From Candidatus Chloroploca sp. Khr17 (GTDB taxonomy: Bacteria; Chloroflexota; Chloroflexia; Chloroflexales; Chloroflexaceae): a DNA stretch of 59,586 nt. The stretch lies in contig NZ_RYFF01000020.1 in the NCBI RefSeq assembly GCF_004138165.1, positions 33,982 through 93,567 on the forward strand. The letters run 5' to 3'. The first letter of the stretch is position 1. Each line of letters begins with the position of its first letter. Shown in pieces: positions 36,860-52,735 of the stretch. The position numbers and the translations under genes were made by a program. A model generated the notes under the pieces. That model saw only the letters and a program-made list of their open reading frames with translations. It did not search any database and had not been told where the DNA came from.

Positions 36860-36931
36860 TCCTCGCCTGGCAAAAACGTGCGGTTAATTCCACCACAACT
36901 GACTACAGATAAGAATACATAAGCGTACAAA

Positions 36932-37735
36932 TCAACGTGTTAAAGCGCGTTGAACCATTGCCGAAGGGCGCAGAGCTTGATCACTCTCGAGAAACGCCCG
37001 CGCCATCCGCATGGGTTGGTAGCGGCGCGAACCTACCACCACGACACTATCCTCAAGCGGATCCGCTAGATCCCAACGCCCCAGTCCATGACGTACCAGT
37101 ACCTCGCCGATGTAAGCACCAAATGTACGTACATTGGCTGTAAGCAGATCTTCATCCCGTAGGAATGTACGATGTTCATTGTCTACATTGAACTCGAAAC
37201 GTTCCAGGCTCTCGACGGAGTAGTCGAGAGCAAGATCTTCATAGAGTGCCGTACGAAAACGTTCAGCTAGGGTAGCCGGTTCGAGCTCTTCCGCATCCGT
37301 GTCTTCATCATACGTATCACCATTGAAGGCACGGTAGATGAGCTCAATGGTAGCTTGGAGGTGCGCTATCGTCTGAGTCACTGTTGCGGCCGTGAACGTT
37401 GGTAGTGGACGATCACAGATCAAGCAGAGGTCACGATCATGATCGAAAGATAGACATGCATCCACTAAGTCATTGTTCATTTGGCTCATTATCAATGCAA
37501 GGGGACTGATATCTTCCCCTTCCTCAGCCGCATACAAGGGCGTTATGCAAAAACGCACATACTCATCGCCAAGTGGCCCTATCTGGGGATATGCCATAAG
37601 ACGGAATGTGCCGCTCGTAGTAGGCCCAATCGGACACTCGATGTCGAAATAGATAATAGGTTGATCGCTATCAGGATCTTCAACGTCGTAGACAAGCCCT
37701 GCTGTGGTGAAAGCAGTCGTAAAAGATATAGACAC
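36932..37735 (-). CDS. Island operon gene 13: strongly acidic cytoplasmic protein, possibly a chaperone/immunity-like partner of the basic proteins.
   Basis: GTG 37735 is preceded by AGGAG ('taggagtaagcctGTG'), immediately after the stop of the upstream gene. Asp/Glu-rich runs include 'DVEDPDSD' and 'YDEDTDAEELEP'. The N-terminal half looks YbjN/chaperone-like by eye only. Confidence 0.65.
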   Translation of the reverse strand: MSISFTTAFTTAGLVYDVEDPDSDQPIIYFDIECPIGPTTSGTFRLMAYPQIGPLGDEYVRFCITPLYAAEEGEDISPLALIMSQMNNDLVDACLSFDHDRDLCLICDRPLPTFTAATVTQTIAHLQATIELIYRAFNGDTYDEDTDAEELEPATLAERFRTALYEDLALDYSVESLERFEFNVDNEHRTFLRDEDLLTANVRTFGAYIGEVLVRHGLGRWDLADPLEDSVVVVGSRRYQPMRMARAFLESDQALRPSAMVQRALTR

Positions 37736-37748
37736 AGGCTTACTCCTA

Positions 37749-38390
37749 TTACGGTATCTGACGAATTTCCACATTTTTACGCTTCGCGGCTGTAATACGC
37801 TGCTTGATTATCGCATTTTGTTCAGGTGTGGTGTTCTTTGGCTTTGGAACCGCGACAACAAGATTGCTATTCTTGCTGGATAAAGCGTTTAATTCGGGAT
37901 TTTTATTTGATTTAAACTTCTTGTCCTTATAAGATTTGACTTGTGATATCTTTCTGTTGAGATTTTTTTGATCAACACCAGCGATACCCTTTACCGGTCG
38001 ATAATTTTCAATCAATTCAAATTTAAATTTTTTCGGATCAGTACTCCGCTTTAGCACCCTAAGTGTGTCAACACGTTTTCTATTCTCAAGTGCTACTTCA
38101 GAGAAAACATCTCCGCGCTTAATTTGCTTATAGTTTGGCGGTGTTTTTCCCTGCAAAGTAGTTGCAGACTTCGGTTTGCGATTGTGTAATTTTGCATGGT
38201 AATTTGTGGAGATTTTGTTGAATTTATGTCCATTAGCTGTATTTCGCCGCAGTTGTGTTCGCTTAAGCTCATTTGACGAAGAGACATTGCGTGCGGCAGC
38301 TTTCATTTTTGTTTTGGAGATCGGAACGGAGATGCTACTTCTATTTACTTTGGGTGTGCCATGCGTAGATTTGCTGCCAACTTTTTTCAT
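37749..38390 (-). CDS. Island operon gene 12: extremely basic Lys/Asn/Arg-rich protein of unknown function. It is the lowest-GC gene in the window.
   Basis: SD 'aggggtg' before ATG 38390. 213 aa dominated by K/N/R/S/T ('KKFKFELIENYRPVKG', 'KSYKDKKFKSNKNPE'). In the 60-nt line starting at 37861 I count 18 G+C. Confidence 0.7.
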   Translation of the reverse strand: MKKVGSKSTHGTPKVNRSSISVPISKTKMKAAARNVSSSNELKRTQLRRNTANGHKFNKISTNYHAKLHNRKPKSATTLQGKTPPNYKQIKRGDVFSEVALENRKRVDTLRVLKRSTDPKKFKFELIENYRPVKGIAGVDQKNLNRKISQVKSYKDKKFKSNKNPELNALSSKNSNLVVAVPKPKNTTPEQNAIIKQRITAAKRKNVEIRQIP

Positions 38391-38410
38391 TTCACACCCC
38401 TATACATTCA

Positions 38411-38977
38411 TTACTTCTTACGCACAATCTTTGGTCTGCCCTGGAAACGTCCGAGCCGCCGCGCCTGTTCGATATGCTGTTCGTTGCGCTCTTGCATCTG
38501 TGCAGCTTCAAAATCGCGCAGGATCTCGTCGGGTTTCTGTAGTGGTTCGGCATGGGGCATAAACATGCTGCTGAGTGCTGCCAACCCCACGAGACCATCA
38601 ACTGTCTTCACCGCAGTGTAGGCTTTGGCCTGATTGAACTTGCCTTTGAACCAATTTAGTTTAGATATTTGATTCGGTGTGGGGGATTTTGGCTGATTCG
38701 AGCCACGAACAGTAGGGTGCTGCAGACCTCCTCGCACGTTGCGTGTTGGCAACGTACTGCTTGGCTTCGCCTTAACTTGTTTTAGTGGTGGCGTCCGAAC
38801 CTTTGATGTTGGGTGCTTCGCCAGTTTGCGTGTCGCTTGCTGCAACTTGACTGGTGTAACCCGCTGCCGGGCGGTTGTTGAAGCAACTGGTTGTAGAGCA
38901 CGTACTGGCGGCGTAGGCTTTGGGGTATTGGGGTTGCTCACACCTGCCCCACTTTTAGTACTCCGATTAACCTTCAT
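38411..38977 (-). CDS. Island operon gene 11: basic Pro/Thr/Lys/Arg-rich protein of unknown function.
   Basis: ATG 38977-38975 overlaps the TGA 38976-38974 of the upstream ATPase gene (ATGA coupling). The N-terminal ~110 aa are low-complexity and basic ('KPTPPVRALQ...KHPTSKVRTPPLKQVKAKP'). The C-terminus is helical ('DEILRDFEAAQMQERNEQHIEQARRLG'). Confidence 0.65.
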   Translation of the reverse strand: MKVNRSTKSGAGVSNPNTPKPTPPVRALQPVASTTARQRVTPVKLQQATRKLAKHPTSKVRTPPLKQVKAKPSSTLPTRNVRGGLQHPTVRGSNQPKSPTPNQISKLNWFKGKFNQAKAYTAVKTVDGLVGLAALSSMFMPHAEPLQKPDEILRDFEAAQMQERNEQHIEQARRLGRFQGRPKIVRKK

Positions 38978-41787
38978 GCGCCTGCTCCAATCAACATTTG
39001 CAGCACCTGGGCATCTACGGGTAAGCCCGAGTTGCGCATCCAATCAGCAGCCAAACGCAGGTAGACCCGTCGCACTTCGGCGTAGCGCGGGTGCGCACCA
39101 AATCGTGCCGTACAGATCTGCTCAATCTGGGTATGGTCCAGGGCACGATCTCCATAGCCCCCCAGAACATCTTCAATCGTTTCAGGCAAGCTATACCCAT
39201 CTTGTGCAAGCACCCACTTAGCTGCGGCATGGGGATCGTCCGGTAGGATGCTAACGGTCTGCACTTGGTTTGGCATCGGTGGCTGCCAGAGCGCCGCTGG
39301 CGGCATCTGCAACGGGCGGCGGGCCATCATCGCCTTCACGGCCTCATCGGAGTCATCAAAGATCGGGCGATCATCGGGCGTCTGAAAACGATCCAGGTAG
39401 TTGCCAACCTGCACGAAGATCGGGCGACTATCGGGGCCTCGTACAATCACTTGGCCCTGCCCGAGTGAGCGTACGTATTCGCGCTGACGCTCATTCAGGT
39501 TCATCACCTCACAGAAGAGCTTAAAGCTCTCCTGATCTTCGAGCCGATGCATGATTTTGAGGTTCGTATTGCCTAGCGCACCATTGACCAGTTGGGTTGG
39601 GATCTGCTCAGCGATCAAGATCCCTTCCCCAAACCCGCGCACCTCAGCCAAAATATTGGCGAAATCCTCTCCACCACGACTCCGTGCGTCAGCAAGATCT
39701 TCGCTACCCTTGTGTCCAGCCGACATAAGCCGATGGGCTTCTTCGATCAGAGTCATGTGCAGTTGTTTGCCGCGTTGTTCGGGTGGGAGGCGTTTGTAGC
39801 GGCTCTGCAATTCTTGGGTCAGTTGTACCAACAAAAAGGCCATAATCAGGGCGCTATCTTCGGGGGAGCCAACCCTTCCTAATTCCATGACGGTTGGCCG
39901 TGAGAGCACTACACTGAGCGGGGCTGGAGCCGTGGTATTGACAATTGTCCCTGCATTGAGCAGAAGATCACGCATGCGAATTTCGGCTGATTGGCGTACC
40001 CGGTCTTTGGCCTCCTCATCAAAGCCCGCCGTCATCAACTCGCTCACCGCAACGAGCGTCGTGTAGAACGCAGCCAAGGTGGGGGTGCCTACCCCCGGAT
40101 CGCCCCCCTTGCCCTGTTCGAGATTCCAACCTGCATCGGTATAGACCTGACGCAGGGCTGCGCGATAAATCGCTGGCAGAGGATCCCACATCGAGAAGGC
40201 GGCCATAAAACAGCGCATCAACAAACTGAGATGGGTCTTAAGCAAGATCCCCTCTGCCACGTAGAAGGGGTTGAAGCGGAAAGGCGTGGTGGTTTCATCA
40301 CCCAGCGTAAAAATTAGCAGATCGTCGGCCATTTGTGGGTCGGCCATGAGTAGCCGATAGTCCGGTTTGTCAATTGGGTACATCACCAGGAATGGTACCT
40401 GGTGGTCGGCCCAAAGTTGGGCCAGCATGTGCAGGCATGTGTTAGTTTTACCGCTTCCCGTAGCCCCTGCGATGAGACCGTGGCGGTTAAGGTCACGGAT
40501 CGGAATTTGCATATACTGGCCAGTACGCGTGCCACGATGGATGATCTCACCGAGGTTCAAACAGGGCACGTTGGTGAGCAGGCGATCGGTTGGCAAAACG
40601 AATGGCTCGTCGCGTACCTCAAGCCCGGGTAGATAACCACTCTCGGGGGGGATCGGCAGACGGAAGGCCCCCGCCGCTTGGTCGGTACTGACGAGATAGC
40701 GCAAGCGTACTGTCGCCTGATCAACGCGTGTTGGCCCCCAGGCTCCGTACTCAAGAAACGCAAAGTTATAACGTGCAATCGCCAGATCTTGATCATCCTT
40801 AGGGCTTTCGCTGGCCCATTGACGTGGCTCCGGCGTATTGTTTTGAATCAACTCGGAACCCAGCGCTTCCATTACATCATTAGGTGCATAATCCGATCCT
40901 ATCACTTGGATTTTTATGCGGAATAAATGATTTCTTTTGTTGATCAGAGGCATAAAGGTACGGGAAATATCATCAAAGCGTTCACGGCGATACAAATCAA
41001 ACCATGATTTGGACTCAACTTCTGCTGTGAGATTGCGATAACGTGAGAGCAGTAAGTTAATCTGGAGTAGCTCTTCGTGGAAGAGCACTGTTGGTCGCAA
41101 GCAGATGCTTGCGACACAGGTTTGCTCTTGTTGCACCAGCGTTTCTAAGAAGCGGCCAAAAGCAGAAGCATCAAAAACTGGACTAAAGGGATGTGGGAAG
41201 TAGCCAATGGCATCAGTACCTGCGTATGGATCAAAATCCTCAAACTTGCGAATCTCGACCAATTGGTTCATGCCTACCTGTTCAATGGGAATAGGTAACA
41301 TTGAACGCATGAAGTCGTCTTCGCCTAACGGCTCTAATGGGTAGTTGAAAGGATCTTCGAGAGGGTAGTGACTACGAAACTTGCACCAGAGCTGCCAGCA
41401 CAGATTTTTGGCGCGATTGCGGTTGGGATGGAAAGCCTTGCCAAGAAAGACAATCTCAATGGTTGGGCGATGTCCTGTCACTTGACTTGGTCGAGCAATA
41501 AACCGCAGATCGAAGGCGGCACTACCCTCGGCAATCATCCGAGCGTTGATCAAATCATTCAGGAAGCGGATTTGACGCAGCGTAATCAACCGAATACGAC
41601 TCAGTTCACCTCCACTGAGCGTACGCGTGAAATCGCTGGTTAAAAAACTAGGAATGAACGGCACCCGTGCTGCAAAGATAGCGTGCGCCCCCTGCTGGCG
41701 AGTGACTTGCACCCCACTACCCCCCCAACTCTCGGCATAGTGGAACTCATCGGGATTGCTGACGTAGATGAACGGCTCTTGCAACAT
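38974..41787 (-). CDS. Island operon gene 10: HerA/FtsK-superfamily (DUF87-like) P-loop ATPase with a ~430-aa N-terminal domain of unknown function.
   Basis: SD 'aggaagg' lies 8 nt before ATG 41787. Walker A 'GLIAGATGSGKTN' at 40444-40467. Walker B/sensor 'LHMTLIEEAHRL'. 'ILIAEQIPTQL...NTNLKIMHRL' is typical of HerA-like NTPases. Confidence 0.75.
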   Translation of the reverse strand: MLQEPFIYVSNPDEFHYAESWGGSGVQVTRQQGAHAIFAARVPFIPSFLTSDFTRTLSGGELSRIRLITLRQIRFLNDLINARMIAEGSAAFDLRFIARPSQVTGHRPTIEIVFLGKAFHPNRNRAKNLCWQLWCKFRSHYPLEDPFNYPLEPLGEDDFMRSMLPIPIEQVGMNQLVEIRKFEDFDPYAGTDAIGYFPHPFSPVFDASAFGRFLETLVQQEQTCVASICLRPTVLFHEELLQINLLLSRYRNLTAEVESKSWFDLYRRERFDDISRTFMPLINKRNHLFRIKIQVIGSDYAPNDVMEALGSELIQNNTPEPRQWASESPKDDQDLAIARYNFAFLEYGAWGPTRVDQATVRLRYLVSTDQAAGAFRLPIPPESGYLPGLEVRDEPFVLPTDRLLTNVPCLNLGEIIHRGTRTGQYMQIPIRDLNRHGLIAGATGSGKTNTCLHMLAQLWADHQVPFLVMYPIDKPDYRLLMADPQMADDLLIFTLGDETTTPFRFNPFYVAEGILLKTHLSLLMRCFMAAFSMWDPLPAIYRAALRQVYTDAGWNLEQGKGGDPGVGTPTLAAFYTTLVAVSELMTAGFDEEAKDRVRQSAEIRMRDLLLNAGTIVNTTAPAPLSVVLSRPTVMELGRVGSPEDSALIMAFLLVQLTQELQSRYKRLPPEQRGKQLHMTLIEEAHRLMSAGHKGSEDLADARSRGGEDFANILAEVRGFGEGILIAEQIPTQLVNGALGNTNLKIMHRLEDQESFKLFCEVMNLNERQREYVRSLGQGQVIVRGPDSRPIFVQVGNYLDRFQTPDDRPIFDDSDEAVKAMMARRPLQMPPAALWQPPMPNQVQTVSILPDDPHAAAKWVLAQDGYSLPETIEDVLGGYGDRALDHTQIEQICTARFGAHPRYAEVRRVYLRLAADWMRNSGLPVDAQVLQMLIGAGA

Positions 41788-41806
41788 ACGGGTGCCTTCC
41801 TGATCA

Positions 41807-43195
41807 CTAAGCGTAAGCGGTCATAACGGCTTCGACCAGCACAAGTAGATCGCACTGGGGCGTCCAGTTAGCGAGCGGTTCAGGCATGAAGCGCTGCTCT
41901 TGTCCATCGAACTCTACAAACATAGTTGGAGCCTCTTGGGGATACCGAGCCGTACAACTAAAATAGATGCCGAGGGTGTGCCCAAGCTGATCACGCAGGC
42001 TGACACTGACCAGGAAGACGTTCGCATCTTCGTGTAGGGCGGCGTTTAGTCCCTGTGCTAGCATTGCGCCTATCTCGTTGCGCAGGCGTTCGCCAGCACC
42101 TGCGCCGCTGAAGCGTGCGACGGGTGACGGTAAAGCGGGAACAGTCACACCATACATCCCTCCGAGAGTAGCTGTAGGTGGGGCTACGGCCTGTCCGGTG
42201 AGCGCCCCAAGCAACACCTGTTGAAGGTCATTGCTACCTGCCGCCGATGTCCCCATCGGCAGCATCCCCGCCTTCGCCATCTCGGTCAGGGCCAGTAAGC
42301 GTTGTCCATCTGTTTGCGCTTTATCACCAAAGACACGCGTGTACATGTCTGGATTGGTCAGCAAGAGATATTGCGGTGTCAATTCAATCATGCGCGAGAT
42401 ATTCATCTGTGTGAGCGCCTGTGCCATCGCAATCTCGGCCTGCGAGTTCGCCTGGATCTTCGCGACCTCGGCATCAGTTTGCGCCTCGCGGGTACGCATA
42501 TAAACGTCACGTAATTTCTTGTCCAGTTCTTCAGCACCCGCAATACGCGTGATCTGGACGTTCGAGACTCGTATTCCCAAGTTGTCTTCAATGCCGCGTT
42601 GCTGCAATTGCTGTGCAACCATGTAACCTGCATGACCGCCCGCCTGGAAATCCTGGTATTTAGCAATTGATGCAGTGATCGAACGAATTGATTCCATCAC
42701 CGTATCATAGAGCCTCGTGAGCGGCTGTTCGACGACAAGCGCAACGTGTTCAGGATGAATTATCTGATAACTGACTGCAACATCGAGATCAACTGGCAAT
42801 GCAATCTTCTCACCCTGGGGCGGCTGATAGAAAATCGTAAACTCCTTCGTCGTTGTTATATCCAGCGTGCGCTCACGCGTATTGACCACGTAGAGATCAA
42901 TGCGATTCATCACGGGAAACGAGAGCGCGTGATAACTCCCTTCTTGCAGCACTTCGAGCACTCTGCCATCCCCGGTCACAACGACGGTAGTGCCAGCCAT
43001 AACCCGAAAGATACGAAAGATACTGGTGAAGACATTGTTATGAACACGTACTGGACCAAAGACAAGGGGTGAATTACTTAGATCAGCAAACGGTTCACGC
43101 AGGAAGTCATCAAGCGAGCCCTGTCTGCTCGCTGCTTCCTTATCGTTAACGTGACGACGGTTTAGGGGCATGGTCTGGTCACGGTTAGTTCCCAT
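41807..43195 (-). CDS. Island operon gene 9: SPFH/Band-7 (flotillin/prohibitin-like) domain fused to a C-terminal UEV/RWD-like (non-catalytic E2-fold) domain.
   Basis: ATG 43195 follows 'ggaaggag'. The SPFH-like core runs from 'VVVTGDGRVLEVLQEGSYHA...' through 'VDLDVAVSYQIIHPEHVALVV' and 'GIRVSNVQITRI' to a coiled-coil 'AQTDAEVAKIQANSQAEIAMAQA'. C-terminus 'LGIYFSCTARYPQEAPTMFVEF...NWTPQCDLLVLVEAV'. Confidence 0.7.
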   Translation of the reverse strand: MGTNRDQTMPLNRRHVNDKEAASRQGSLDDFLREPFADLSNSPLVFGPVRVHNNVFTSIFRIFRVMAGTTVVVTGDGRVLEVLQEGSYHALSFPVMNRIDLYVVNTRERTLDITTTKEFTIFYQPPQGEKIALPVDLDVAVSYQIIHPEHVALVVEQPLTRLYDTVMESIRSITASIAKYQDFQAGGHAGYMVAQQLQQRGIEDNLGIRVSNVQITRIAGAEELDKKLRDVYMRTREAQTDAEVAKIQANSQAEIAMAQALTQMNISRMIELTPQYLLLTNPDMYTRVFGDKAQTDGQRLLALTEMAKAGMLPMGTSAAGSNDLQQVLLGALTGQAVAPPTATLGGMYGVTVPALPSPVARFSGAGAGERLRNEIGAMLAQGLNAALHEDANVFLVSVSLRDQLGHTLGIYFSCTARYPQEAPTMFVEFDGQEQRFMPEPLANWTPQCDLLVLVEAVMTAYA

Positions 43196-43229
43196 ACGAG
43201 CCAACTCCTTCCTGAGGCGCACAAGGTTG

Positions 43230-44453
43230 TTAGGTTTGATTGGGTAATATGCTAAGCTGAATGACCGGAAGATCAGCCAAGATGTCCGAAGCTTCGGCGG
43301 CTGCTTCTTGTTCACTCATCTTGAGGCTTTCGGCTACGAAAGCTGAATAGTTGCACACCGGACATTGAGCATTCTTCGGCACATCAATGAAGAGGCTCTC
43401 TAACGGCTGTTGAAAGATCCACTCCGCACGATTACCGAAGAGGAGCCAGTTCGTCGGCAGATCCGGTAGCGTGTTCTGCTTATCGCGCAGAAGCGTTAGT
43501 AACGCCATACGCGCCATTAACAGCGCAATCATACCCACATCAACCCCTAGACCTGGCTGAGCCAGTAATTCTTCCATACGTGCGGGATCTTCGTAACCCA
43601 GCGAGAAATCCTGTGTAGCGGCAGGGGGAGGGCCAAAAAAATCGGCAATGACGGTCTGAAAACAGGCGTAGCAAGCACCCTCGGAGGGAATTGCACGGAA
43701 GATATCACCCCCAAAGGCGCGATTGTAGGCTGCGGCATAGATAGCCGGGATCCCTCTTGGCCAGCACACGGTATTGACCGCCAACTTTGAGTCTTCATGA
43801 TCAGTAGCGACCACAACCAGATCACACCCGGTAACAATGGTAGCTAGTTGATCCTCATGGCCTAACACGTTCAACTCGTAGGTCTCGACGGTAATTGCGG
43901 GCGAGATGTCGTAGAGCAGATCGCGCAGGGCACGGGTCTTATAGCGCCCGATATCGTGGAGGCCACACGCATGACGTGCAATATTGTGAACTTTGAGCCG
44001 ATCAAAATCCACCAACCGCATCTGCCCTACTCCGCAACGAGCAAGCTGGCTCGCCACCACTGAACCACCTGAGCCGAGGCCAATCACGGCAATGCACGTA
44101 TTGGCGAGGCTGCTCACTTCAAAGATGCCGTGCATACGTGAGGCATAGTCAGTATGCAAACGGATGACGTTGCAGGAAATCGTTTCCCATCCAGTAGCCT
44201 TGCTTTGCCAACCAGCAACCTGATCTGGCAACTCATCGTCAATGTTGAGGACTATTTCTTCCGGGGCCAGTTCTGTTGTTGGCGGTACAGGGCTGCGATA
44301 CCAGCGACCTAGGTACGCACCGGACGCCTCAAGGATTCCCCTGATTTGCACGACATCGCCATCGTCATAACGGTAGCCGTAGAGCTTGCCCTCTGTCTGT
44401 GCAGCAGTACCAAGCAACTGGTTAATCAAGCTATCAGGAACGGTAAGAAACAT
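43230..44453 (-). CDS. Island operon gene 8: ThiF/MoeB/E1-like adenylyltransferase with an N-terminal degenerate JAB-like segment.
   Basis: SD 'ggag' lies between the upstream TAG and ATG 44453. Rossmann motif 'IAVIGLGSGGS' at 44061-44081. 'RLVDFDRLKVHNIARH' is the E1 Arg-finger/Asp region. 'GACYACF'. The N-terminal 115 aa align by eye to the two JAB proteins, but with HKH replaced by YRS. Confidence 0.8.
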   Translation of the reverse strand: MFLTVPDSLINQLLGTAAQTEGKLYGYRYDDGDVVQIRGILEASGAYLGRWYRSPVPPTTELAPEEIVLNIDDELPDQVAGWQSKATGWETISCNVIRLHTDYASRMHGIFEVSSLANTCIAVIGLGSGGSVVASQLARCGVGQMRLVDFDRLKVHNIARHACGLHDIGRYKTRALRDLLYDISPAITVETYELNVLGHEDQLATIVTGCDLVVVATDHEDSKLAVNTVCWPRGIPAIYAAAYNRAFGGDIFRAIPSEGACYACFQTVIADFFGPPPAATQDFSLGYEDPARMEELLAQPGLGVDVGMIALLMARMALLTLLRDKQNTLPDLPTNWLLFGNRAEWIFQQPLESLFIDVPKNAQCPVCNYSAFVAESLKMSEQEAAAEASDILADLPVIQLSILPNQT

Positions 44454-44464
44454 CGGCAGACTCC

Positions 44465-45865
44465 CTATTGCAGTGGCTTCCCTTGATCTGGTTGAACCGA
44501 TGTTGGAAATACATAGCTGCGGTTGAACTCAGCGCAGAGGTCAGCCGCACTACGACAGGCCAGTTCAACTTGACGTACGATCAGACGACCTTGAAATTCG
44601 AGCAACTCACCAATGCGCTGGGATGGACGTGGTTGGGTCAAGGTTTCAAGCACATTGCGCACTACATCACGTAGGCGTATATGGGTACGCCAACCACCAG
44701 GAAAGAGTTGTTCAGTCACAATACGTACTACGTTATCATCACTCAACACGACTTGGACTTCAGGCGCTTGCTGCGGAAACTGTGAACCAGGATCAAGCTT
44801 AATAGCTTTGATCTGTAGCGGCTCTGTTTGCGCAACTGGCGCGACATTTACCATCCCCTCCGGCGTTTGCTGGGGTGCTGGGATTATCTCAGGGATATTC
44901 AGGGTCATTAGGGGCGGATGCGTAAAGGTAATCGTATACCAAACTCCGTTATCATCGCGCGTATGTACCTCCAGATGCGCCCCAGATCGCAAGGTCTGGC
45001 AGTACTGTTCCAGATCCTGTTGTTCGCGTGCAAAGCGGCCAGGAAGGGGAGGGATTGGCGGAATGCTTGCATCAGGTGGTGAACCTGAGAAAGGTGGTAT
45101 TTCAGGCGGCACGAAATCAGTCGCTGAACGACGAGTGTAAGAGGAACTTTCTAGATCGATGACCTCCAGGGTATCAGGAGGTTCCACATCTAGTGTGTAA
45201 GGTGAGGTATGTGGCTGCACCGGAGGATGGGAATGCAGATTGGCCCGGGCAGCACGGAGATCGGCCGGGTTGACTCCCCAGCGATCAGCAGTTCCTGATG
45301 TTGCGTGAGGAGGTTTTGGCGCAACTGTCTGTTGTTCTAGCGCAACCAGACCATCCAACAAGACGCGAAGGTCGCCTTCGACAAGCTCACATGGCACAGG
45401 CGTCGCACTCATCGTCTCACGGGGATAGTAGTGCCCATGGAGCAGAAATGTACCATCTTCAATGGTTACAAGTGGGGTGAAGATACCGTGGGGCAAATGA
45501 TAGGACTCATCGCTCAAGATATCGACCACCTGAAGCGTATCACCCGAACTTGGCCGATGCAAACCTGGCGGATGCTTATGCCACTCACCAACATAATCAA
45601 CGTGGTAGGTGGCGTAGTGCTGACGCCACGTTTCCAGGTCGCGTTGGCGAGCAAGTGCATCTGGAGCATAGGTATGCGCCCGTCGGTCGGCATTGCTACC
45701 AGGACCAGAGGCTGCCACAACGACGAGGTGGAGTCCATCGGGGAGTTGGAACATACGTCCAACCAGGATGCCGCCGGTCTCACGTCCAGGGCTCGTACAT
45801 GCCTCGTCGTACATCCGCTGATAGACATCTTGTTGGGCCAGATAGACGGTATTTGGTACTGGCAT
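44465..45865 (-). CDS. Island operon gene 7: JAB/MPN+ (JAMM) metallopeptidase fused to a C-terminal UEV/RWD-like domain.
   Basis: ATG 45865 lies one nt after the E2 stop codon (TAA 45869-45867). 'ETGGILVG'. An intact JAMM motif 'HKHPPGLHRPSSGD' (H-x-H-x7-S-x2-D) at 45539-45580. C-terminus 'IKAIKLDPGSQFPQQAPEVQVVL...GGWRTHIRLRDVVRNVL'. Confidence 0.85.
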   Translation of the reverse strand: MPVPNTVYLAQQDVYQRMYDEACTSPGRETGGILVGRMFQLPDGLHLVVVAASGPGSNADRRAHTYAPDALARQRDLETWRQHYATYHVDYVGEWHKHPPGLHRPSSGDTLQVVDILSDESYHLPHGIFTPLVTIEDGTFLLHGHYYPRETMSATPVPCELVEGDLRVLLDGLVALEQQTVAPKPPHATSGTADRWGVNPADLRAARANLHSHPPVQPHTSPYTLDVEPPDTLEVIDLESSSYTRRSATDFVPPEIPPFSGSPPDASIPPIPPLPGRFAREQQDLEQYCQTLRSGAHLEVHTRDDNGVWYTITFTHPPLMTLNIPEIIPAPQQTPEGMVNVAPVAQTEPLQIKAIKLDPGSQFPQQAPEVQVVLSDDNVVRIVTEQLFPGGWRTHIRLRDVVRNVLETLTQPRPSQRIGELLEFQGRLIVRQVELACRSAADLCAEFNRSYVFPTSVQPDQGKPLQ

Positions 45866-45866
45866 G

Positions 45867-46322
45867 TTAGTCTGCCTCAATTCCAGGCCAATAGGTTTTC
45901 CCTGACTCAAGCCAGGTTTCGTAGGCAAAGAACCAAGCGGCGGCTACCGCGATCACGGTTGCTGCCGTGGTTTGCTGGGCAAACGAACGATCACCAGGGT
46001 AGTAGAGGCATAGGTGTCCATCGTTATACTGGTGCTTGAGGCGGCCTGCTTGCTCGTCCTTCCAGACGGTAATCGCTGGGTTAATGGGATAAACTTTAGG
46101 CGGATCATCGGGAAAGTTGTCAGGATAGTAGAGTGCAATCTCATAGCGCCTTTCGCGATTACTCTCTAAGGTGCCGATCCAGACCAACTGGTTACTATCA
46201 CGCACGAGCTGAAACTGGGGAAAGCGCGTTTCCATAGCTCTCTTTTCCAGTACGAGTCGTGCGGGATTAAGGTCATACCACGCTGCATACCAGCGCATCG
46301 GACGGAGAATAGTTTGGCCCAT
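45867..46322 (-). CDS. Island operon gene 6: E2/UBC-like ubiquitin-conjugating-type enzyme with a candidate catalytic Cys.
   Basis: 'YEIALYYPDNFPDDPPKVYPINP' is the E2 flap motif (46098-46115). 'KHQYNDGHLCLYYPG' has the Cys codon at 46008-46010 (H..N..G.lC, as in E2 HPN...C). A C-terminal helix 'TVIAVAAAWFFAY' follows. Confidence 0.8.
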   Translation of the reverse strand: MGQTILRPMRWYAAWYDLNPARLVLEKRAMETRFPQFQLVRDSNQLVWIGTLESNRERRYEIALYYPDNFPDDPPKVYPINPAITVWKDEQAGRLKHQYNDGHLCLYYPGDRSFAQQTTAATVIAVAAAWFFAYETWLESGKTYWPGIEAD

Positions 46323-46387
46323 CGTAACTACCCTTATTCGTTGCTGCTTAACAGTGCTTTAGATGTCTATGTCCACAAGTGGATCGT

Positions 46388-46588
46388 TTATGCTCGTGTA
46401 AATAGGGCAAACCAGCGCTGCGGTTTAAGCACTGTCTTGCTCTGTGGATCGGTCTGCGCGACCTTGGGATCTTCTGGGACGTGCATCTTGCCATCCGGAC
46501 TGACGACAACTTCCTGTGCGGTGGCAAGACGCTTCTTAAGTTCTTCCAGGCTGGATTGTGGGCTACGAGGGGGTTGTGGCGTGCTCAT
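46388..46588 (-). CDS. Island operon gene 5: 66-aa hypothetical protein, probably disordered, occupying the position where a Ubl gene would be expected.
   Basis: ATG 46588 is preceded by a strong SD ('caggaggtacaccaccATG'). Sequence: MSTPQPPRSPQSSLEELKKRLATAQEVVVSPDGKMHVPEDPKVAQTDPQSKTVLKPQRWFALFTRA. There is no C-terminal Gly and no obvious beta-grasp pattern. Confidence 0.55.
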   Translation of the reverse strand: MSTPQPPRSPQSSLEELKKRLATAQEVVVSPDGKMHVPEDPKVAQTDPQSKTVLKPQRWFALFTRA

Positions 46589-46640
46589 GGTGGTGTACCT
46601 CCTGGGATTTGCTGACACGACTGGTATACGTACAAGGGAA

Positions 46641-47357
46641 TTAGATAATACGTTCGGTATATTGTGCCCAAACCGACTGTTGCGTCGGTGGCTGGTTCGT
46701 GACTTGAGCATAAGAAATGAGGCCCAAAAGGTTGTTGACCACTGCCAGCAGTGAACTATTGCCATTCCAACTGCGCAGAACAGACGAATCAAGTGCGAGG
46801 TGATGTTCGGCTAGTTCACCACAGGCATCAAACCCGAGCATGGTGGCAATGAGCTGCGGTGCGATAATTGGATAGTCATCCGTACAAATGAGATGGATCG
46901 AGACATTCTCCCCATCACTCCGTGCCACCCGGATCTGAACACAGTACTCTTCGACATCCGGGCGCCCGGCGAGGCTCACCGCCTCGTAACCATTACTGCG
47001 TAACTTCGCTACTTCTTGCGTCAAACGTTGCACCACATTTATTGGGGTAACATCAATCACTTGGCGACTTGCAACTGGGGTTCCGGCTGGTGTAAAACCA
47101 CCCGCGCCGGAACTCCAGGTTGGTACCTGCGATGAAAGCGTCGAAGTGTCTTCATGGATTGGCATTGGAGGCGGGCGCATGGTGGGACTAGCCGGTGGGA
47201 GAATGAACGCTTTACCCTGTTTTGATGTTACTTCTGATTGGCTCGTTGTGGCGCGTCGCCCACTCCCGCCTCGTTGGAGTACGAAGACAACGAGGATCAG
47301 GACGACGAGAACGAGGACGCCCCCACCAGCAATGATCAGCAGAATTGATGTATCCAA
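46641..47357 (-). CDS. Island operon gene 4: N-terminal TM anchor, Pro-rich linker and UEV/RWD-like domain.
   Basis: TTG start at 47357 follows GGAGG, which overlaps the upstream TAG ('TAGGAGGcgtcTTG'). TM 'ILLIIAGGGVLVLVVLILVVFVL'. 'VSIHLICTDDYPIIAPQLIATM...SWNGNSSLLAVVNNLL'. Confidence 0.7.
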   Translation of the reverse strand: MDTSILLIIAGGGVLVLVVLILVVFVLQRGGSGRRATTSQSEVTSKQGKAFILPPASPTMRPPPMPIHEDTSTLSSQVPTWSSGAGGFTPAGTPVASRQVIDVTPINVVQRLTQEVAKLRSNGYEAVSLAGRPDVEEYCVQIRVARSDGENVSIHLICTDDYPIIAPQLIATMLGFDACGELAEHHLALDSSVLRSWNGNSSLLAVVNNLLGLISYAQVTNQPPTQQSVWAQYTERII

Positions 47358-47365
47358 GACGCCTC

Positions 47366-49150
47366 CTAGCGGGGTATGATGCGTACCAGATAAGTCGCAC
47401 TGGTACTCAGATCCAGGTTCGCTTCGCCTACCATCGGCAATTCCGCCAGGCTCAGCAAGTAACGTCCACTGGGTAGGGCCGCACTCGCGACACCTGTCTG
47501 ATCAGTCACGATCTGGCGATTGCCGCTCGATCCCACAAGGTTGAGTACCAGATTAGAGGTAGGTGCAATAATCAGCAGATTGACCGGATCGCCATTGATC
47601 TGCGTTGCGAGACGACGATCCGTAAGCAAACGCGTCCATTCAGATGCATCGAGTCGGGTTGTAATGATTTGATAGGCACTCGTGCTTGCAAGCAAAGCTT
47701 CGGCTTCGCGCTTGAGTTGGCGCGCACTTTCCCCACGATCCTCTGCAACCTGAGCAAGGCTAAGTGCGGCGTTGGCCTGAGCGAGCGCGTCGGTGCCAAC
47801 TGTCCCGCCGCGTTCGAGCAAGGCTAGACCGTAACCGACATAAGAATCGTAGAGCCACTGCTCGACGGTGCGTACCGCAGGGTCGCTTGTGTTAGGCCTT
47901 AATTGCACGGCCTGTTCAAGTTCGCTGATCAGGGCGGGCCATGTAGCGACACTTGCATCGCGGAATTGTGTCGCCCGTGCAATCCACTTCAAACGATCAG
48001 CTAGTCCTTCAAGATCTTGCTCCAGAGTTGCAGCAAGTACATAATGCTCGTGAGACTCAATGACATCCGTGGCAAAGAGGAGGTCACCCCATGCCAGCTG
48101 GGCTTGTGCCAAGCGGGTCTTGACGCCTATCGCTGCTTCAGGACTCTGCGCTTCAGGGTGGAGAACATGGATCTGTTCAAGCAGGGCTACTACTTGTGCC
48201 CAACTTGCCGTGGTATTCACTGCCCATAGTTGCTCGGCCTCAGTCCAGAGCGTCTTCGTCCGGGCTTCGATAACAGCAACTAGTCCAGCCTGAGCATCAG
48301 AGGAGGCTGGATCAAGCGCGAGAGCCTGGCGAAACATGGCTTCCGCCTGATCAAGTTGGTTCGCTTCGAGGAGTGCGGACGCATAACGCTCATAGGCGGT
48401 GATGAGCGGGATTGGATTGGCAACCAGGCTACCGCAACTACCACCCACCCCGCTCTGACCACGGTTGTGCATTGCTTCGAGGGTATGGGTTACTTGCGCG
48501 AGGGATTCGCGATCACCGACTGCATAGGCTTGAGCCACGAACTGCTGCTCGGAAGCGCACGGATCGTAGAGCAAGGTATAGTAGAGTAGCAACCCCCCGG
48601 CAATGAGCAGGGTGACACCTCCACCTACCACGGCTAAGATCTTCCCTGTGGCGGAACGACGCGTTGGGGTAGGAAGGGGACGTTCTTCACGAGGTGGCAA
48701 CTCCTTAGGGAATGGCACATCAAGTGGTGGCATGGGGGCCACCGGTTCAGCAATGCGTGCAAGCCGTAGATTGGAACTCTGTACGCTGTCCTGGACTTCC
48801 AGAACGATTTCGTAGAGCATCTGGCGACTCGACCAACTGAGACGGGTTTTTGACTCGACATCAATCGGGAGTTCTTGTAACTCGCCGTAGCTTGTTGTGC
48901 CGGGTGTGGTCACGGTGACCACAAGATTGGGCGCCGTAGCTGGAAAATTTGCATCAAGCTGGAAGTAGAGATGCACCGGCTGTGGCCCTTCGTGCGTGTC
49001 ACGAACCAACTCTACTGTTAAGTAGTAGCGCTGAGCACTCGCGTCCTGCTGGAGGTCGCAAGCATAGCCCATATCACGGATGGCCTTGACCTCTTGACCA
49101 ATGCGCTCAGCGTGACTTTGGTCAGCGGCCATGGGGGGGAGGGATGACAT
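47366..49150 (-). CDS. Island operon gene 3: UEV/RWD-like domain, TM, helical (TPR-like) repeats and a C-terminal CarboxypepD_reg-like beta-sandwich.
   Basis: 'PVHLYFQLDANFPATAPNLVVTV...SWSSRQMLYEIVLEV'. TM 'ILAVVGGGVTLLIAGGLLLYYTLLY'. Repeats 'SWAQVVALLEQIHVLHP' and 'TWPALISELEQAVQLRP'. C-terminus 'DQTGVASAALPSGRYLLSL'. Confidence 0.75.
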   Translation of the reverse strand: MSSLPPMAADQSHAERIGQEVKAIRDMGYACDLQQDASAQRYYLTVELVRDTHEGPQPVHLYFQLDANFPATAPNLVVTVTTPGTTSYGELQELPIDVESKTRLSWSSRQMLYEIVLEVQDSVQSSNLRLARIAEPVAPMPPLDVPFPKELPPREERPLPTPTRRSATGKILAVVGGGVTLLIAGGLLLYYTLLYDPCASEQQFVAQAYAVGDRESLAQVTHTLEAMHNRGQSGVGGSCGSLVANPIPLITAYERYASALLEANQLDQAEAMFRQALALDPASSDAQAGLVAVIEARTKTLWTEAEQLWAVNTTASWAQVVALLEQIHVLHPEAQSPEAAIGVKTRLAQAQLAWGDLLFATDVIESHEHYVLAATLEQDLEGLADRLKWIARATQFRDASVATWPALISELEQAVQLRPNTSDPAVRTVEQWLYDSYVGYGLALLERGGTVGTDALAQANAALSLAQVAEDRGESARQLKREAEALLASTSAYQIITTRLDASEWTRLLTDRRLATQINGDPVNLLIIAPTSNLVLNLVGSSGNRQIVTDQTGVASAALPSGRYLLSLAELPMVGEANLDLSTSATYLVRIIPR

Positions 49151-49207
49151 AGCAACTACTCTCTTGTAAGCGACGCGAATGCCCAGCGTTGACGAGCCTT
49201 ACGAAAC

Positions 49208-50017
49208 TCAGATCCGGCCATAGAGATCAGTAACAATCGTTGCCAGACGACACGAACCGTCCCAGGGGAAGAAGATTCCGGAACCAATATTGAGCGAGGT
49301 GCCATGGCGCTCGACAACCACGGAAGGTGGTTGCTGAGGGTAAGTTGGCTCACACACCATATAGATCGTCGTCCCATCCTGTGGTCGGGTAACGGTTACG
49401 CAGCACGTGCCGTCTTGGAGGGTATTGATCTGGACGGTGCCAAATTGGGCCAGTGCTATGCGCTCACCAGCGATACGCTCGGCGAGATCCAAACTAGGAC
49501 GAGGTGTGGCTCCCCCTACCGTCTGGTGCGGGCTAGGTGGTGGATCAGGTGGTAGTAATGGCCCCGAACTACGTAGCCCAGCAGTAGGGGAGGCGTTCGT
49601 TCTAGCTATGAGTCCGCTCGTCCGGAGATTGCCGTCCGACCTAGAGGCTATAGTAGGCCCGCGGCCCATTGAACTGCCAAGCACGAGGCCAAGCAGTAGG
49701 CCGGGAGCTGTCCCAAGCAGCATTGCCACACTGTACATACGCAAACTCCCAAGGGCTAGTCCTAGATTATCGCTCAGCAGCATATTTAGGACACCACAAA
49801 GCAGCACAAAGACGAGCGCACTAGCTGCGGGGCCAACGAAGATCGCCCAGTGGTAACCTTGTGCGACACGCCCGCGTAAGAGTAGACCTCCACCCAGGCC
49901 CCCGATGATCAGCCCGATCATTGCCAGAGCTAGAACCACCAGCGGGTTCGTGCTGATCAATAGGCCCATGCCCAGGAAGAAGAGACAACTGACGATGATA
50001 ACCATTGCTGCAAGCAT
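49208..50017 (-). CDS. Island operon gene 2: 4-TM Gly-zipper membrane domain, Pro-rich linker and UEV/RWD-like domain.
   Basis: ATG 50017 lies 3 nt after the upstream TAA, with GGAGGA inside the last codons of the upstream gene. TM segments include 'GLIIGGLGGGLLL'. 'TTIYMVCEPTYPQQPPSVVVER...PWDGSCRLATIVTDLY'. Confidence 0.75.
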   Translation of the reverse strand: MLAAMVIIVSCLFFLGMGLLISTNPLVVLALAMIGLIIGGLGGGLLLRGRVAQGYHWAIFVGPAASALVFVLLCGVLNMLLSDNLGLALGSLRMYSVAMLLGTAPGLLLGLVLGSSMGRGPTIASRSDGNLRTSGLIARTNASPTAGLRSSGPLLPPDPPPSPHQTVGGATPRPSLDLAERIAGERIALAQFGTVQINTLQDGTCCVTVTRPQDGTTIYMVCEPTYPQQPPSVVVERHGTSLNIGSGIFFPWDGSCRLATIVTDLYGRI

Positions 50018-50020
50018 GGG

Positions 50021-52735
50021 TTATTCCTCCAGGCTAACAGTAATTTTGTAGTATTTCGATTTCTCGAAGCTAAACTCAATTGCTGTTGATCGAATTTTTG
50101 TTTCACCACCTACTGATTCCACTGTCAGTCTATTGCGGCCATCAATATTCATAAACTTAAAGCTTACACGAATTTCAGAATCTCCTCCTCTTAAAATTGC
50201 ATCACTAGGCCCTACGAGAAGTACATTAACATTTGGAGGCGGCGTTCCACCATTGGCTTCGGTCATCTCATTCTCTGAAATTTCACTAATTGCGATTCTA
50301 TATAGGGGCCATGTAGCTTCCTCAGCCGTTTGGGTTTGGGTTTGGGCTTGCGCCAGAGCCTCCGCTTGTGCGGTAGCAGCAACAGCAGAGGCTGTGGCTT
50401 CAGCATTAGCGGTGGCACTAGCAGCAGCAGCAGCAGCAGCAGTAGCGCTGGCCTGGGCCACAGCCGTGGTCGTTTGCGCCTGTGCGGTTGCGGCGGGGTT
50501 AGGTGTGGGGCGGGGTGTAGAGACATCAGCAGCCAAGGCACGATTAGCACTTTCCTTTAGCTTGGCAACTGTCTCTGCTGTCTCTGCTGTCTCTGCTGAG
50601 CTCGGCCTGACGGCTTCACTACCAAAGTCGTCGAGTTGCTCCAGCAAGCTTAATGCGTCTAAGACCGCACGCCAATCAGTACGATTGAGCGCCTCTTCAA
50701 CTTCAGACCATAACTCATCGGCCTGCGTCTGGGTAGTATTGGCATCATCAATGGACTGATCTAATGCATCATCACCACGCTCATTCGTACGCAAAAAATC
50801 TGCATTTACCCTGGCTTCATTGATCTGAGCCTGTGCATCGTCAAGCTTCCCATCCCGCCAGAGAGCACGGGCATATTTTAGGCGGGTCTCAGACTGGATT
50901 TTAGCCACGTCTGATATGCGTGGATCACCTCCTTGAAATGCAACAGGATCCGGTAAAAGGCCAGTAGTTGCTACAATTTCGTCAAGGATCCTCACCGCCT
51001 GTTGCCAATTACCATCGTCTACTGCTTTATCGTAGCTGGCCCACTCGGCCTCTAACCGCTGCACGTCACCAAGAGCATCAACAGCTTGACGGATCTCAGT
51101 ACGTAGTGCGCTGAGTTCCTCCTGTAAGGAGCGCGAGATTTGGCTGTCATTGCCTTCCGGCCAATTAGTAGATAACAGCGTTCGTGCCTCTACCAGTTTC
51201 TGTGCTTCCACGTTTTCAGTATCAATCTTTGTACGCACCTCGGCCATGAGCACTTTCACGAACCAATCGTTAGCTCGTTGCTTCGCTTCGTCATCCATAC
51301 TCAAAGCAGCACGCTGAGCCTGCTTCGCTACCTCGCGTGCGAGGTCGAACTCAGGTGGCTCAGCAGCAAGATAATCGTTGATTAACAGTAGGCGCGCATC
51401 ATGGATCAATTGCGTGATGTCGCGTCCTCGTGGGTCCGTAGTTTCACCTTCTTTAAGTCGTTCCTGTAACTTAGCAATGCGCTCTGAAAGCGAGAGGTTA
51501 GGATTATCTATTTCGATCCACATAGCGATGGCGGTCTGGGTTTGGGTAGCCTGAAGAGCAGCAGTCGCCGTTGCGTCGCTCGCTGTCTGATCCAGAGTTA
51601 AAGTTGCGCTAGGTGTCTGTTCGATCCCAGTCAATGGTTCCTGGCCCTGTGGTTGACCAACCTGCTCACCACTGGACCAGATCTGCCAACCGACAAAGCC
51701 AAATAAACCAAGCGCTACGAGTGATAAGGCCGCAACGAGAACAACAAAGCCTCCATTCTGGCGTTTCCTTGCCGCAGTTCTCGATGGCGGCGAAACCGGG
51801 CTAGGCGTTGATGGATGCACGACAGGAGCAATGGGCAGTGCAGCGGCGACGGGCATCGCACGAAGAACGCCCTCGACTACATCAACCAAGTGTGAATTGC
51901 CGTTATGATAGGTCCACTGGTTAATCACACCATCATCGTTCTGTGGCAACGCAGTGCCAGCCCGTTCAATGGCTACCAGGGCCGGTGGTACTCGTGGGAA
52001 GTCATTCGGGGCCATCAGATAGATCGTGAGATCAGGATGCTGGTTCGTGCGGACTTCAAAGAAGAAATTCGTATCTTGGCTCTTCAGCGTCACCTGATAG
52101 CCCCGCTCACGAAGCAAACGATGCTCTTCGCCAATACGATCATTGATCGGTGGGCTGCTTGCACCATCAGCTCGCTCGCGCTGGATCAGAGGATGCTCAT
52201 CATCAATTTCATGCACACGTGAAGCCTGAATTTCTACAAAAGGCTCACGCCGTTGCGCCATTTGGCGACTCATGTAGTAGTAACGGATGGTAAACTCACC
52301 GCGATCAACCCAGACAATCGGGTTAATGATCTCATTGATTTTATAGGCCGGATCGCGAAAGACGGCATGGGCAGTGGCGACATCACCCGCACTAAATGTC
52401 TGGTAACGTGCAGGATGTTTATGCCATGTGCCGATATAATCTGTTTTCGGGTAGCGGGCGTGATATTCTTGTAACTTACCGTTAACATAGTCAATGTCGG
52501 GATTAAATTCCACCGGATGGTGATACGCATTTTCACCCGGCCCAGTGGCTGCAATGATCAATAGCTGAACGATCTCTTCCCCATCAAGACGTCGTCCAAC
52601 CAGGATGCCCCCAGTCTCATTTTCCAAACTCGTTGTACTACCTCGCCGGGCTTCCTCTTCAATCAGGCGGCGGGCTGAACGCGTGATATAAATCTTACCA
52701 GGGAGCGGTGACTTCTGGGTACTGAGCTGTGACAT
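50021..52735 (-). CDS. Island operon gene 1: JAB/MPN+ metallopeptidase, UEV/RWD-like domain, TM, ~550-aa helical-repeat region and a C-terminal beta domain.
   Basis: SD 'ggagga' lies 5 nt before ATG 52735. 'ETGGILVG'. Intact JAMM 'HKHPARYQTFSAGD' at 52382-52423. 'LTIYLMAPNDFPRVPPALVAIE' with FPRVPP at 51983-52000. TM 'GGFVVLVAALSLVALGLFGFVGW'. Helical repeats ('NWQQAVRILDEIV', 'DWRAVLDALSLLEQL'), an Ala/Thr/Gln low-complexity stretch, and a beta-rich C-terminus. Confidence 0.8.
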   Translation of the reverse strand: MSQLSTQKSPLPGKIYITRSARRLIEEEARRGSTTSLENETGGILVGRRLDGEEIVQLLIIAATGPGENAYHHPVEFNPDIDYVNGKLQEYHARYPKTDYIGTWHKHPARYQTFSAGDVATAHAVFRDPAYKINEIINPIVWVDRGEFTIRYYYMSRQMAQRREPFVEIQASRVHEIDDEHPLIQRERADGASSPPINDRIGEEHRLLRERGYQVTLKSQDTNFFFEVRTNQHPDLTIYLMAPNDFPRVPPALVAIERAGTALPQNDDGVINQWTYHNGNSHLVDVVEGVLRAMPVAAALPIAPVVHPSTPSPVSPPSRTAARKRQNGGFVVLVAALSLVALGLFGFVGWQIWSSGEQVGQPQGQEPLTGIEQTPSATLTLDQTASDATATAALQATQTQTAIAMWIEIDNPNLSLSERIAKLQERLKEGETTDPRGRDITQLIHDARLLLINDYLAAEPPEFDLAREVAKQAQRAALSMDDEAKQRANDWFVKVLMAEVRTKIDTENVEAQKLVEARTLLSTNWPEGNDSQISRSLQEELSALRTEIRQAVDALGDVQRLEAEWASYDKAVDDGNWQQAVRILDEIVATTGLLPDPVAFQGGDPRISDVAKIQSETRLKYARALWRDGKLDDAQAQINEARVNADFLRTNERGDDALDQSIDDANTTQTQADELWSEVEEALNRTDWRAVLDALSLLEQLDDFGSEAVRPSSAETAETAETVAKLKESANRALAADVSTPRPTPNPAATAQAQTTTAVAQASATAAAAAAASATANAEATASAVAATAQAEALAQAQTQTQTAEEATWPLYRIAISEISENEMTEANGGTPPPNVNVLLVGPSDAILRGGDSEIRVSFKFMNIDGRNRLTVESVGGETKIRSTAIEFSFEKSKYYKITVSLEE

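Follow-up and report, generated by a model that had tools for sequence, protein, structure and literature searches.

The E1 gene of this locus raises the question of what the protein carries in front of its adenylation domain. In the open reading frame list of the window, the whole 59,586-nucleotide stretch of DNA analyzed here, the gene lies at 43230-44453 on the minus strand and encodes 407 aa. Its product is 100% identical to a protein of Candidatus Chloroploca sp. Khr17 (order Chloroflexales) named "ThiF family adenylyltransferase". A Pfam search of E1 returned ThiF at residues 115-328 (5.3e-35) and no match for the first ~100 residues. The initial annotation proposed that the region encoding residues 1-115 (44109-44453, minus strand) contains the relic of a JAB domain whose metal ligands were replaced. 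In this study, we found that E1 appears to consist of a dead N-terminal MPN domain followed by a Cap2-type ThiF adenylation domain. The MPN fold prediction, the profile-profile comparison with shuffle controls, and the conservation in the family all uphold the proposed relic. A fold and a probable role can now be assigned to about 100 residues whose only annotation had been that of the whole "ThiF family adenylyltransferase".

The start of E1 is real: its ATG is located 11 nt downstream of the stop codon of the preceding JAB gene, behind a GGGAG, and 90% of the E1 homologues have a M-[FLY]-[VLI]-T start at the same place. The N-terminal domain of ~98 residues was kept in about 70 Chloroflexota E1 homologues with lengths of 390-430 aa.

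Predicted fold of the E1 N-terminal domain and loss of the catalytic residues

Structure prediction had been suggested as a check of the relic claim, and an MPN fold was predicted for the E1 N-terminus by AlphaFold2 and Foldseek. AlphaFold2, run with the 69-sequence alignment, modeled residues 1-100 with confidence (mean pLDDT 92.3, pTM 0.83) as one helix and seven strands. The full-length E1 model had a pLDDT of 89.6. The fold matches of the domain were exclusively MPN: all of the top 50 Foldseek matches belonged to this fold (probability 0.93-1.00, query TM-score up to 0.73). The best match was the inactive MPN protein Rpn8, and other inactive MPN partners, CSN6, eIF3f, and Abraxas, were also placed high in the ranking.

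The domain spans residues 1-98 (44160-44453, minus strand). Its predicted order of elements, b1-a1-b2-b3-b4-loop-b5-b6-b7, follows the MPN order b1-a1-b2-b3-(a2)-b4-(a3)-b5-b6-b7, with alpha2 and alpha3 missing. Residues 53-66 were modeled as a loop with lower confidence at the place where the S-x-x-D helix alpha3 would be. Insertions at the places of alpha2 and alpha3 are still present in a few divergent homologues (P0102, P0182, and P0189), which fits a complete MPN domain having been trimmed gradually.

Two blocks of the domain, both on the minus strand, correspond to parts of a JAB. Block 1, residues 19-45 (44319-44399), corresponds to the strand E-x-x-G-x-L-x-G of a JAB together with the b2-b3 hairpin. 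It includes TEGKLYGYRY (44367-44396), and here the E1 family has a conserved motif of its own, G22-x-L-Y-G26-R-x-x-D30-x-G-D33-V-x-Q36. Block 2, residues 46-55 (AYLGRWYRSP, 44289-44318), is the equivalent of strand b4, [IV]-G-x-W-H-x-H-P. In this block G49 and W51 are retained, and the two His positions are occupied by Y52 and S54 in this E1. The near-invariant residues among the ~70 homologues were G22, G26, D30, Q36, G49, W51, and R98.

The JAMM motif E...H-x-H...S-x-x-D is absent from the E1 N-terminal domain, in which the Glu, His, and His positions hold Q19, Y52, and S54. Position 19 was gapped in 36% of the 69 homologues, and no residue exceeded 17% at positions 52 and 54. The loss of H-x-H and S-x-x-D described in the initial annotation was therefore confirmed, as the His positions are variable and the S-x-x-D helix has become a loop. 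With the Glu, the H-x-H, and the S-x-x-D all missing, and with variable residues at their positions in the family, residues 1-98 are predicted to be a catalytically dead pseudo-enzyme. Zinc-dependent isopeptidase activity would not be expected, because the zinc ligands are absent.

Profile match between the N-terminal domain and JAB peptidases

We then considered the link between the N-terminal domain and JAB at the sequence level. The E1 and JAB strings quoted in the initial annotation were all found in the sequence. Pairwise Smith-Waterman alignment of E1 residues 1-100 with each of the two operon JABs gave p = 0.03 and p = 0.016 (2000 shuffles), values that are only marginal and have no decisive value alone. 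Neither the Prok-JAB (PF14464) nor the JAB (PF01398) family HMM matched this E1. When the 69 N-termini were scanned with Pfam as single sequences, a JAB call was almost absent (Prok-JAB in 1/69, E = 0.057), and a profile search of PDB sequences with the N-terminal domain returned none at E <= 10.

A profile of the 69 homologous N-termini was compared by hhalign with a JAB profile built from 54 relatives of the operon JABs. The score was 30.1 (P = 1.6e-4). In the controls, 300 column shuffles scored 11.0 +/- 2.2 with a maximum of 24.5, and the reversed profile scored 11.7. When the JABs were divided by subfamily, the best match was the subfamily of the JAB in the 904-aa protein of the operon, with a score of 36.2, P = 1.2e-5, and a probability of 81%, against column shuffles of 11.8 +/- 2.6 (maximum 24.9). 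Both profile matches thus exceeded all of their column shuffles, with z of about 8.5-9.4, and the shuffle control named in the initial annotation came out in favor of the relic. The JAB-like segments share about 20% identity over about 55 columns, which is too low for a meaningful tree, and the subfamily profile scores were used in place of a tree for the three segments.

The 56 aligned columns of the match to the 904-aa JAB subfamily take in both blocks. The alignment runs through b1-a1-b2-b3 and then places "G..lG.W" on "dYlG.WHKHP", with a gap of ~38 residues in between, at JAB helix alpha2. This agrees with the earlier view that the segment between the two blocks was deleted. Block 2 aligned exactly as had been noted, with Y-L-G-R-W-Y-R-S-P on Y-[IV]-G-x-W-H-K-H-P. 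For block 1, the match to the JABs held, but the ungapped register that had been proposed was off by one. In the better register, Q19 stands at the catalytic Glu, and G22, L24, G26, and Q36 pair with G, L, G, and Q.

A hmmsearch of 1.84 billion representatives with the N-terminal profile gave 20 matches at E <= 1e-3, and no H-x-H-intact N-terminus was found in this search. All of the matches whose sequence was read (14/14) were N-termini of E1s or fragments, and none of them had H-x-H. The matches also included four large repeat proteins (MBG, NHL, Calx-beta, and SdrD), which were judged to be summed weak repeat hits.

Relationship to Cap2 and composition of the operon

By sequence, E1 is a Cap2-type (type II CBASS) E1. 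The PADLOC CBASS E1-E2 (Cap2) model PDLC00855 matched E1 with 5.7e-41, residues 67-364 aligning to profile positions 254-550, so that the match begins inside the N-terminal domain, at residue 67. As a Cap2 reference we used the canonical CBASS operon on the Ruegeria plasmid pSD25 (CD-NTase, Cap2, Cap3, and SAVED). BLASTP of E1 against this Cap2 gave E = 3e-26, and hhalign of the E1 family against 118 Cap2 homologues gave E = 2e-31 over 285 columns, with E1 64-362 on Cap2 249-545. This alignment spans the adenylation domain and, before it, the final three strands of the N-terminal domain. When the N-terminal profile was compared with the Cap2 linker without the E1 domain, the score was 17.2 (shuffles 9.5 +/- 1.4, maximum 12.8), again over the last three strands. 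In the full-length model, 289 residues of E1 aligned to full Cap2 (7TO3) and 202 to the E1-only construct 7TSQ. A direct comparison of the Cap2 linker with the JAB profile was not significant (P = 0.19; reached by 8/100 shuffles).

These results indicate that residues 1-98 are the counterpart of the Cap2 "linker domain" between E2 and E1, and they may also correspond to the N-terminal domain of ATG7, the eukaryotic autophagy E1. The domain stands in front of E1, as the linker does. The ATG7 domain itself is much larger, with an inserted subdomain, and the structural score was in the grey zone. The chain from JAB through the E1 N-terminal domain to the Cap2 linker rests on two half-domain matches and on structure. 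The N-terminal half is JAB-like by sequence in the Chloroploca E1 but not in the Cap2 linker.

The adenylation domain (residues 99-370; 43344-44159, minus strand) has GxGxxG at 125-130 and a four-Cys site formed by C261, C264, C364, and C367, whereas the aligned positions of the Cap2 family have no conserved cysteines. No Cys is present in the crossover loop (about 265-300), where the Cap2 W-C, which includes the catalytic Cys, is replaced by F272-F273, the catalytic Cys aligning to F273.

The genes around E1 are all on the minus strand. The 904-aa protein (50021-52735) has an active JAB at its N-terminus, in about residues 13-165 (Pfam Prok-JAB 5.3e-7; PADLOC JAB 7.6e-18). It is followed by three membrane proteins. 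The one at 49208-50017 was judged RWD/E2-like by eye only, the second (594 aa, 47366-49150) had a weak Pfam RWD match (E = 0.003) below the cutoff, and the third (238 aa, 46641-47357) has a counterpart with a weak RWD match in Oscillochloris trichoides. A separate gene at 45867-46322 encodes a CBASS-type E2 of 151 aa (...GHLCLYYP...), which matched PADLOC E2 PDLC00858 (1.9e-24) and also the N-terminal E2 part of the E1-E2 model PDLC00855 (6.6e-10). The gene directly upstream of E1 (44465-45928) encodes an active JAB peptidase of 487 aa with a C-terminal extension (Pfam Prok-JAB 2.5e-8; PADLOC CBASS JAB models to 2.3e-15). Its JAB lies in about residues 24-165, with E50, H116, H118, S127, and D130. 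Both operon JABs are intact (ETGG...WHKHP...S-x-G-D), and both matched the PADLOC JAB (Cap3) models. Beyond E1 there are an SPFH/Band_7 protein (41807-43315) and a HerA/FtsK-like ATPase of 937 aa (38974-41787). The same gene order was found in O. trichoides DG-6, and the Oscillochloris orthologue of the E2 carries PF26395 E2-CBASS.

The partners are of the same kinds as those of Cap2, the E2 likewise being CBASS-type and the JABs Cap3-type. However, E2 is fused N-terminally in Cap2, whereas in Chloroploca it is encoded separately. Cap2 operons also carry a CD-NTase and a cyclic-nucleotide effector, and the Chloroploca operon is without either: Pfam, PADLOC, and NCBIfam gave no match to a CD-NTase/nucleotidyltransferase, SAVED, or similar among the operon proteins. 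Among the operon proteins, no substrate (Ubl or CD-NTase) could be recognized. The operon can be described as a split Cap2, comprising E2 and a dead JAB-E1, with Cap3-like JABs and no cyclase. This composition points to a conjugation module that derives from CBASS and is put to use in a different setting, alongside transmembrane proteins that have RWD/E2-like domains, an SPFH protein, and a HerA-like ATPase.

Some close relatives have a short E1 from which the N-terminal domain is missing. These relatives still possess separate E2-CBASS, JAB, and HerA genes, and the domain was looked for as a separate gene in them and was absent. The N-terminal domain is therefore an add-on, not indispensable for such an E1/E2 pair.

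Proposed role and origin of the N-terminal domain

It has been reported that Cap2 is a homodimer in which the linker, which shares the fold of ATG7's N-terminal domain, drapes over the partner protomer and positions E2, the E2 domain being next to the adenylation site; in ATG7, free E2s are recruited by the same domain (Ledvina et al., bioRxiv 10.1101/2022.03.31.486616). As the homology of E1 and the position of the domain match those of the Cap2 linker, E2 docking is the most likely function of residues 1-98. Overall, we consider it probable that this dead MPN/JAB domain, as the counterpart of the linker in Cap2 and of the N-terminal domain in ATG7, serves as a non-catalytic platform for E2 docking on E1. 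Residues 1-98 would dock the separate CBASS-type E2 (45867-46322) on a homodimeric E1. The docked E2 would be held over the adenylation site, and the activated C-terminus would pass from E1 to the E2 cysteine. Processing or de-conjugation would be performed by the two intact operon JABs. The hairpin G-x-L-Y-G-R-x-x-D-x-G-D-V-x-Q and the G-x-W are candidate contact surfaces. The suggestion in the initial annotation that the dead JAB may be retained as an E2- or tag-binding module agrees with published accounts of the Cap2 linker and of the N-terminal domain of ATG7.

The dead MPN domain could instead heterodimerize with an active operon JAB and tether or regulate the peptidase on E1, as pseudo-DUB partners do in the pairs of Rpn8 with Rpn11, CSN6 with CSN5, and Abraxas/KIAA0157 with BRCC36. 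The high structural ranking of these inactive proteins, with Rpn8 at the top, speaks for such an arrangement, as does the active JAB gene directly upstream, which also shares contigs with long E1s. However, Rpn8, CSN6, eIF3f/h, and Abraxas are full-size MPN proteins with alpha2, alpha3, and C-terminal helices and have an active MPN subunit as their partner, whereas the Chloroploca domain is trimmed and fused to E1. The alpha2 and C-terminal helices, which contribute to canonical MPN-MPN dimers, are absent from it. Homology and position also favor the Cap2 linker and its published role of E2 positioning, and we regard a peptidase partner as an unlikely role.

Another role was suggested by BubCD, in whose structure the JAB at the N-terminus is held rigidly on E1 and processes the precursor of the Ubl. 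A relic MPN groove might bind the C-terminal tail of a Ubl or substrate and hand it to, or hold it at, the adenylation site, and the G-x-L-x-G strand and G-x-W have been retained. However, the alpha2 segment between b3 and b4 is deleted, and the Ins-1 region of Rpn11, CSN5, and AMSH, with which the ubiquitin tail pairs, belongs to the b3-b4 part of the fold. In addition, Pfam found no Ubl in the operon. BubCD was also tried as the closest architecture to E1 and was rejected. It was absent from the PDB phmmer matches to E1 at 1e-3, which included UBA5, MoeB, MccB, ThiF, and Cap2. The full-length E1 model co-aligned with BubCD over 211 residues only, all in the E1 domain, so the interdomain geometry differs. 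The JAB of BubCD (type I Bub / 6E.1; PDB 9EA5) is an active zinc peptidase of about 164 residues with E28, H91, H93, and D104, whereas the Chloroploca domain is predicted to be dead and has about 98 residues. The BubCD-type operon, with its active N-terminal JAB, Ubl-E2 fusion, and DUF6527 protease, also differs from the Chloroploca operon, in which neither BubE/DUF6527 nor a Ubl-E2 fusion was seen, DUF6527 gave no match among the operon proteins, and the E2 is standalone and CBASS-type. Binding of the tail by the relic groove is accordingly quite doubtful.

The profile match and the fold speak for descent of the N-terminal domain from an active JAB, as does the G-x-W-(H)-x-(H)-P spacing that is the same in the operon JABs. 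The marginal pairwise alignments (p = 0.016-0.03) and the missing calls in the Pfam and PDB sequence searches might speak for a convergent MPN-like beta-sandwich, with no common descent and with two blocks matching by chance. This is very improbable, as the profile-profile scores are 8-9 SD over column shuffles with a reversed control of 11.7, the match is co-linear across five elements of secondary structure and has the G-x-W spacing of the operon JABs, and the fold matches are exclusively MPN. It is scarcely credible that the domain is still a peptidase with a non-canonical active site built on its near-invariant polar residues D30, D33, Q36, R27, and R98, since no conserved His, Cys, Ser, or Glu is present at or near the JAMM site, the b2-b3 hairpin that bears R27, D30, D33, and Q36 is away from that site, with the acidic residues at the far end of b2 from the JAMM Glu, and the operon already encodes two intact JABs.

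Active JAB-E1 fusions are known from bioinformatics (6E operons), and such E1s have long been known to tend to occur next to a JAB or fused to one (Iyer et al. 2006, PMC1779556). The descent from JAB fits this tendency, with an active JAB gene located 11 nt upstream of E1 here. The descent from a JAB-E1 fusion proposed in the initial annotation is consistent with these results but is not demonstrated by them, as the Cap2-type relatives have the order E2-linker-E1 and no H-x-H-intact homologue was found among the 1.84 billion representatives. The ancestor may have been either a two-domain JAB-E1 or a three-domain E2-JAB-E1 protein.

Because the N-terminal half of the domain matches JAB (P = 1.2e-5) and its C-terminal half, together with E1, matches Cap2 (2e-31), this family of Chloroflexota E1s may represent an intermediate that has survived, and the Cap2-type E2-docking domain, and by extension the ATG7 N-terminal domain, may be a fossil JAB/MPN deubiquitinase. 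We regard this reading as evenly balanced. If it is true, the ancestral order E2-JAB-E1, which is still present here, would have given rise to the Cap2 architecture by gene fusion and then by death of the middle enzyme. The E1 family would form a bridge at the sequence level between active JAB peptidases and E2-docking domains of the Cap2-linker/ATG7 N-terminal-domain type, which bears on how non-canonical E1s gained an E2-recruiting module.

Active JAB-E1 fusions (6E operons and BubCD) and the relationship of the Cap2 linker to the N-terminal domain of ATG7 are already known. An inactive JAB beside E2 and E1 domains has also been stated briefly by specialists, a 2026 preprint describing "E2 ... 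fused to an inactive JAB ... sometimes to E1", and the present case lends support to that idea without introducing a principle of its own. Particular to this locus are the standalone dead JAB-E1 with its separate E2 in a cyclase-free operon, and a putative relic that can be detected by sequence as JAB in one half and as Cap2 in the other.

Composition of the operon

The operon occupies positions 35601-52735 of the window on the minus strand. It encodes a Cap2-type E1, a CBASS-type E2, and two Cap3-type JABs. A CD-NTase, a recognisable Ubl, and a cyclic-nucleotide effector were all not found at 35601-52735. Four of the operon proteins have a transmembrane segment together with a region without Cys that by eye resembles an RWD/E2-like domain; among these four, a Pfam RWD match was obtained for the 594-aa protein only, with an E-value of 0.003, which is below the cutoff. 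Among the remaining products is an SPFH/Band_7 protein; another is the 937-aa HerA/FtsK-like ATPase, which matched mad8 in PADLOC (1.1e-18). The gene order is kept in the Oscillochloris trichoides locus.

An ORF downstream of the ATPase (37749-38390) encodes a lysine-rich protein of 213 aa. Its match in Pfam was weak and below the cutoff (CDI toxin restriction-endonuclease-like domain PF21111, E = 0.0015). This protein may be a nuclease effector.

Cysteine residues and homologues of the E1

The 407-aa E1 (43230-44453, minus strand) was compared with Cap2, the E2-linker-E1 fusion of type II CBASS. The catalytic Cys of the Cap2 crossover loop (W-C) aligns to F272-F273 of the E1, where the E1 has no Cys. 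Cys163 of the E1 is invariant, and Cys230 is near-invariant. The E1 also has a four-Cys site formed by Cys261, Cys264, Cys364, and Cys367, whereas the aligned Cap2 family is without conserved cysteines at these positions. The E1 may hand the adenylate straight to the E2, or another residue may be used instead of the crossover-loop Cys.

P0060, a metagenomic homologue of the E1, combines HerA_C and ThiF Pfam matches in one predicted protein of 607 aa, and its N-terminus is unlike that of the E1 family. Either this combination hints at a close functional tie of the E1 to the ATPase, or it may be a gene-calling artefact. With large repeat proteins of the MBG, NHL, Calx-beta, and SdrD kinds (P0181, P0185, P0186, and P0190), the profile of the E1 N-terminal domain, a dead JAB, gave multi-stretch matches with E-values between 7e-7 and 1e-3. 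These were rejected as homologues, since we judged them to be summed weak matches to beta-hairpin repeats.

Genes flanking the E1

The JAB adjoining the E1 (44465-45928) has 487 aa in the window, and its O. trichoides counterpart has 458 aa. Elsewhere, the homologues nearest to it stand alone and are 172-199 aa long; the C-terminal ~300 residues of the JAB protein form an additional region.

The SPFH ORF as listed (41807-43315) has a GTG start and overlaps the E1 by 86 nt. Because the O. trichoides orthologue has 458 aa and starts 19 nt past the E1 stop, the true start in the window is probably the ATG at about 43195 (MGTNRDQ...).

The small ORF directly upstream of the E2 (46388-46792 frame; region 46323-46640) ends in an LKPQRWF(A/S)... 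motif, and the N-terminus of the E2 in the window is similar, LRPMRWYAAWYD. In a relative with a short E1, the E2 (6521-7102 of that locus) has 193 aa, and LKPQRWFSWFDD is internal. The LKPQRWF(A/S) region may be an N-terminal extension of the E2; in the window this extension would be split or mis-called.
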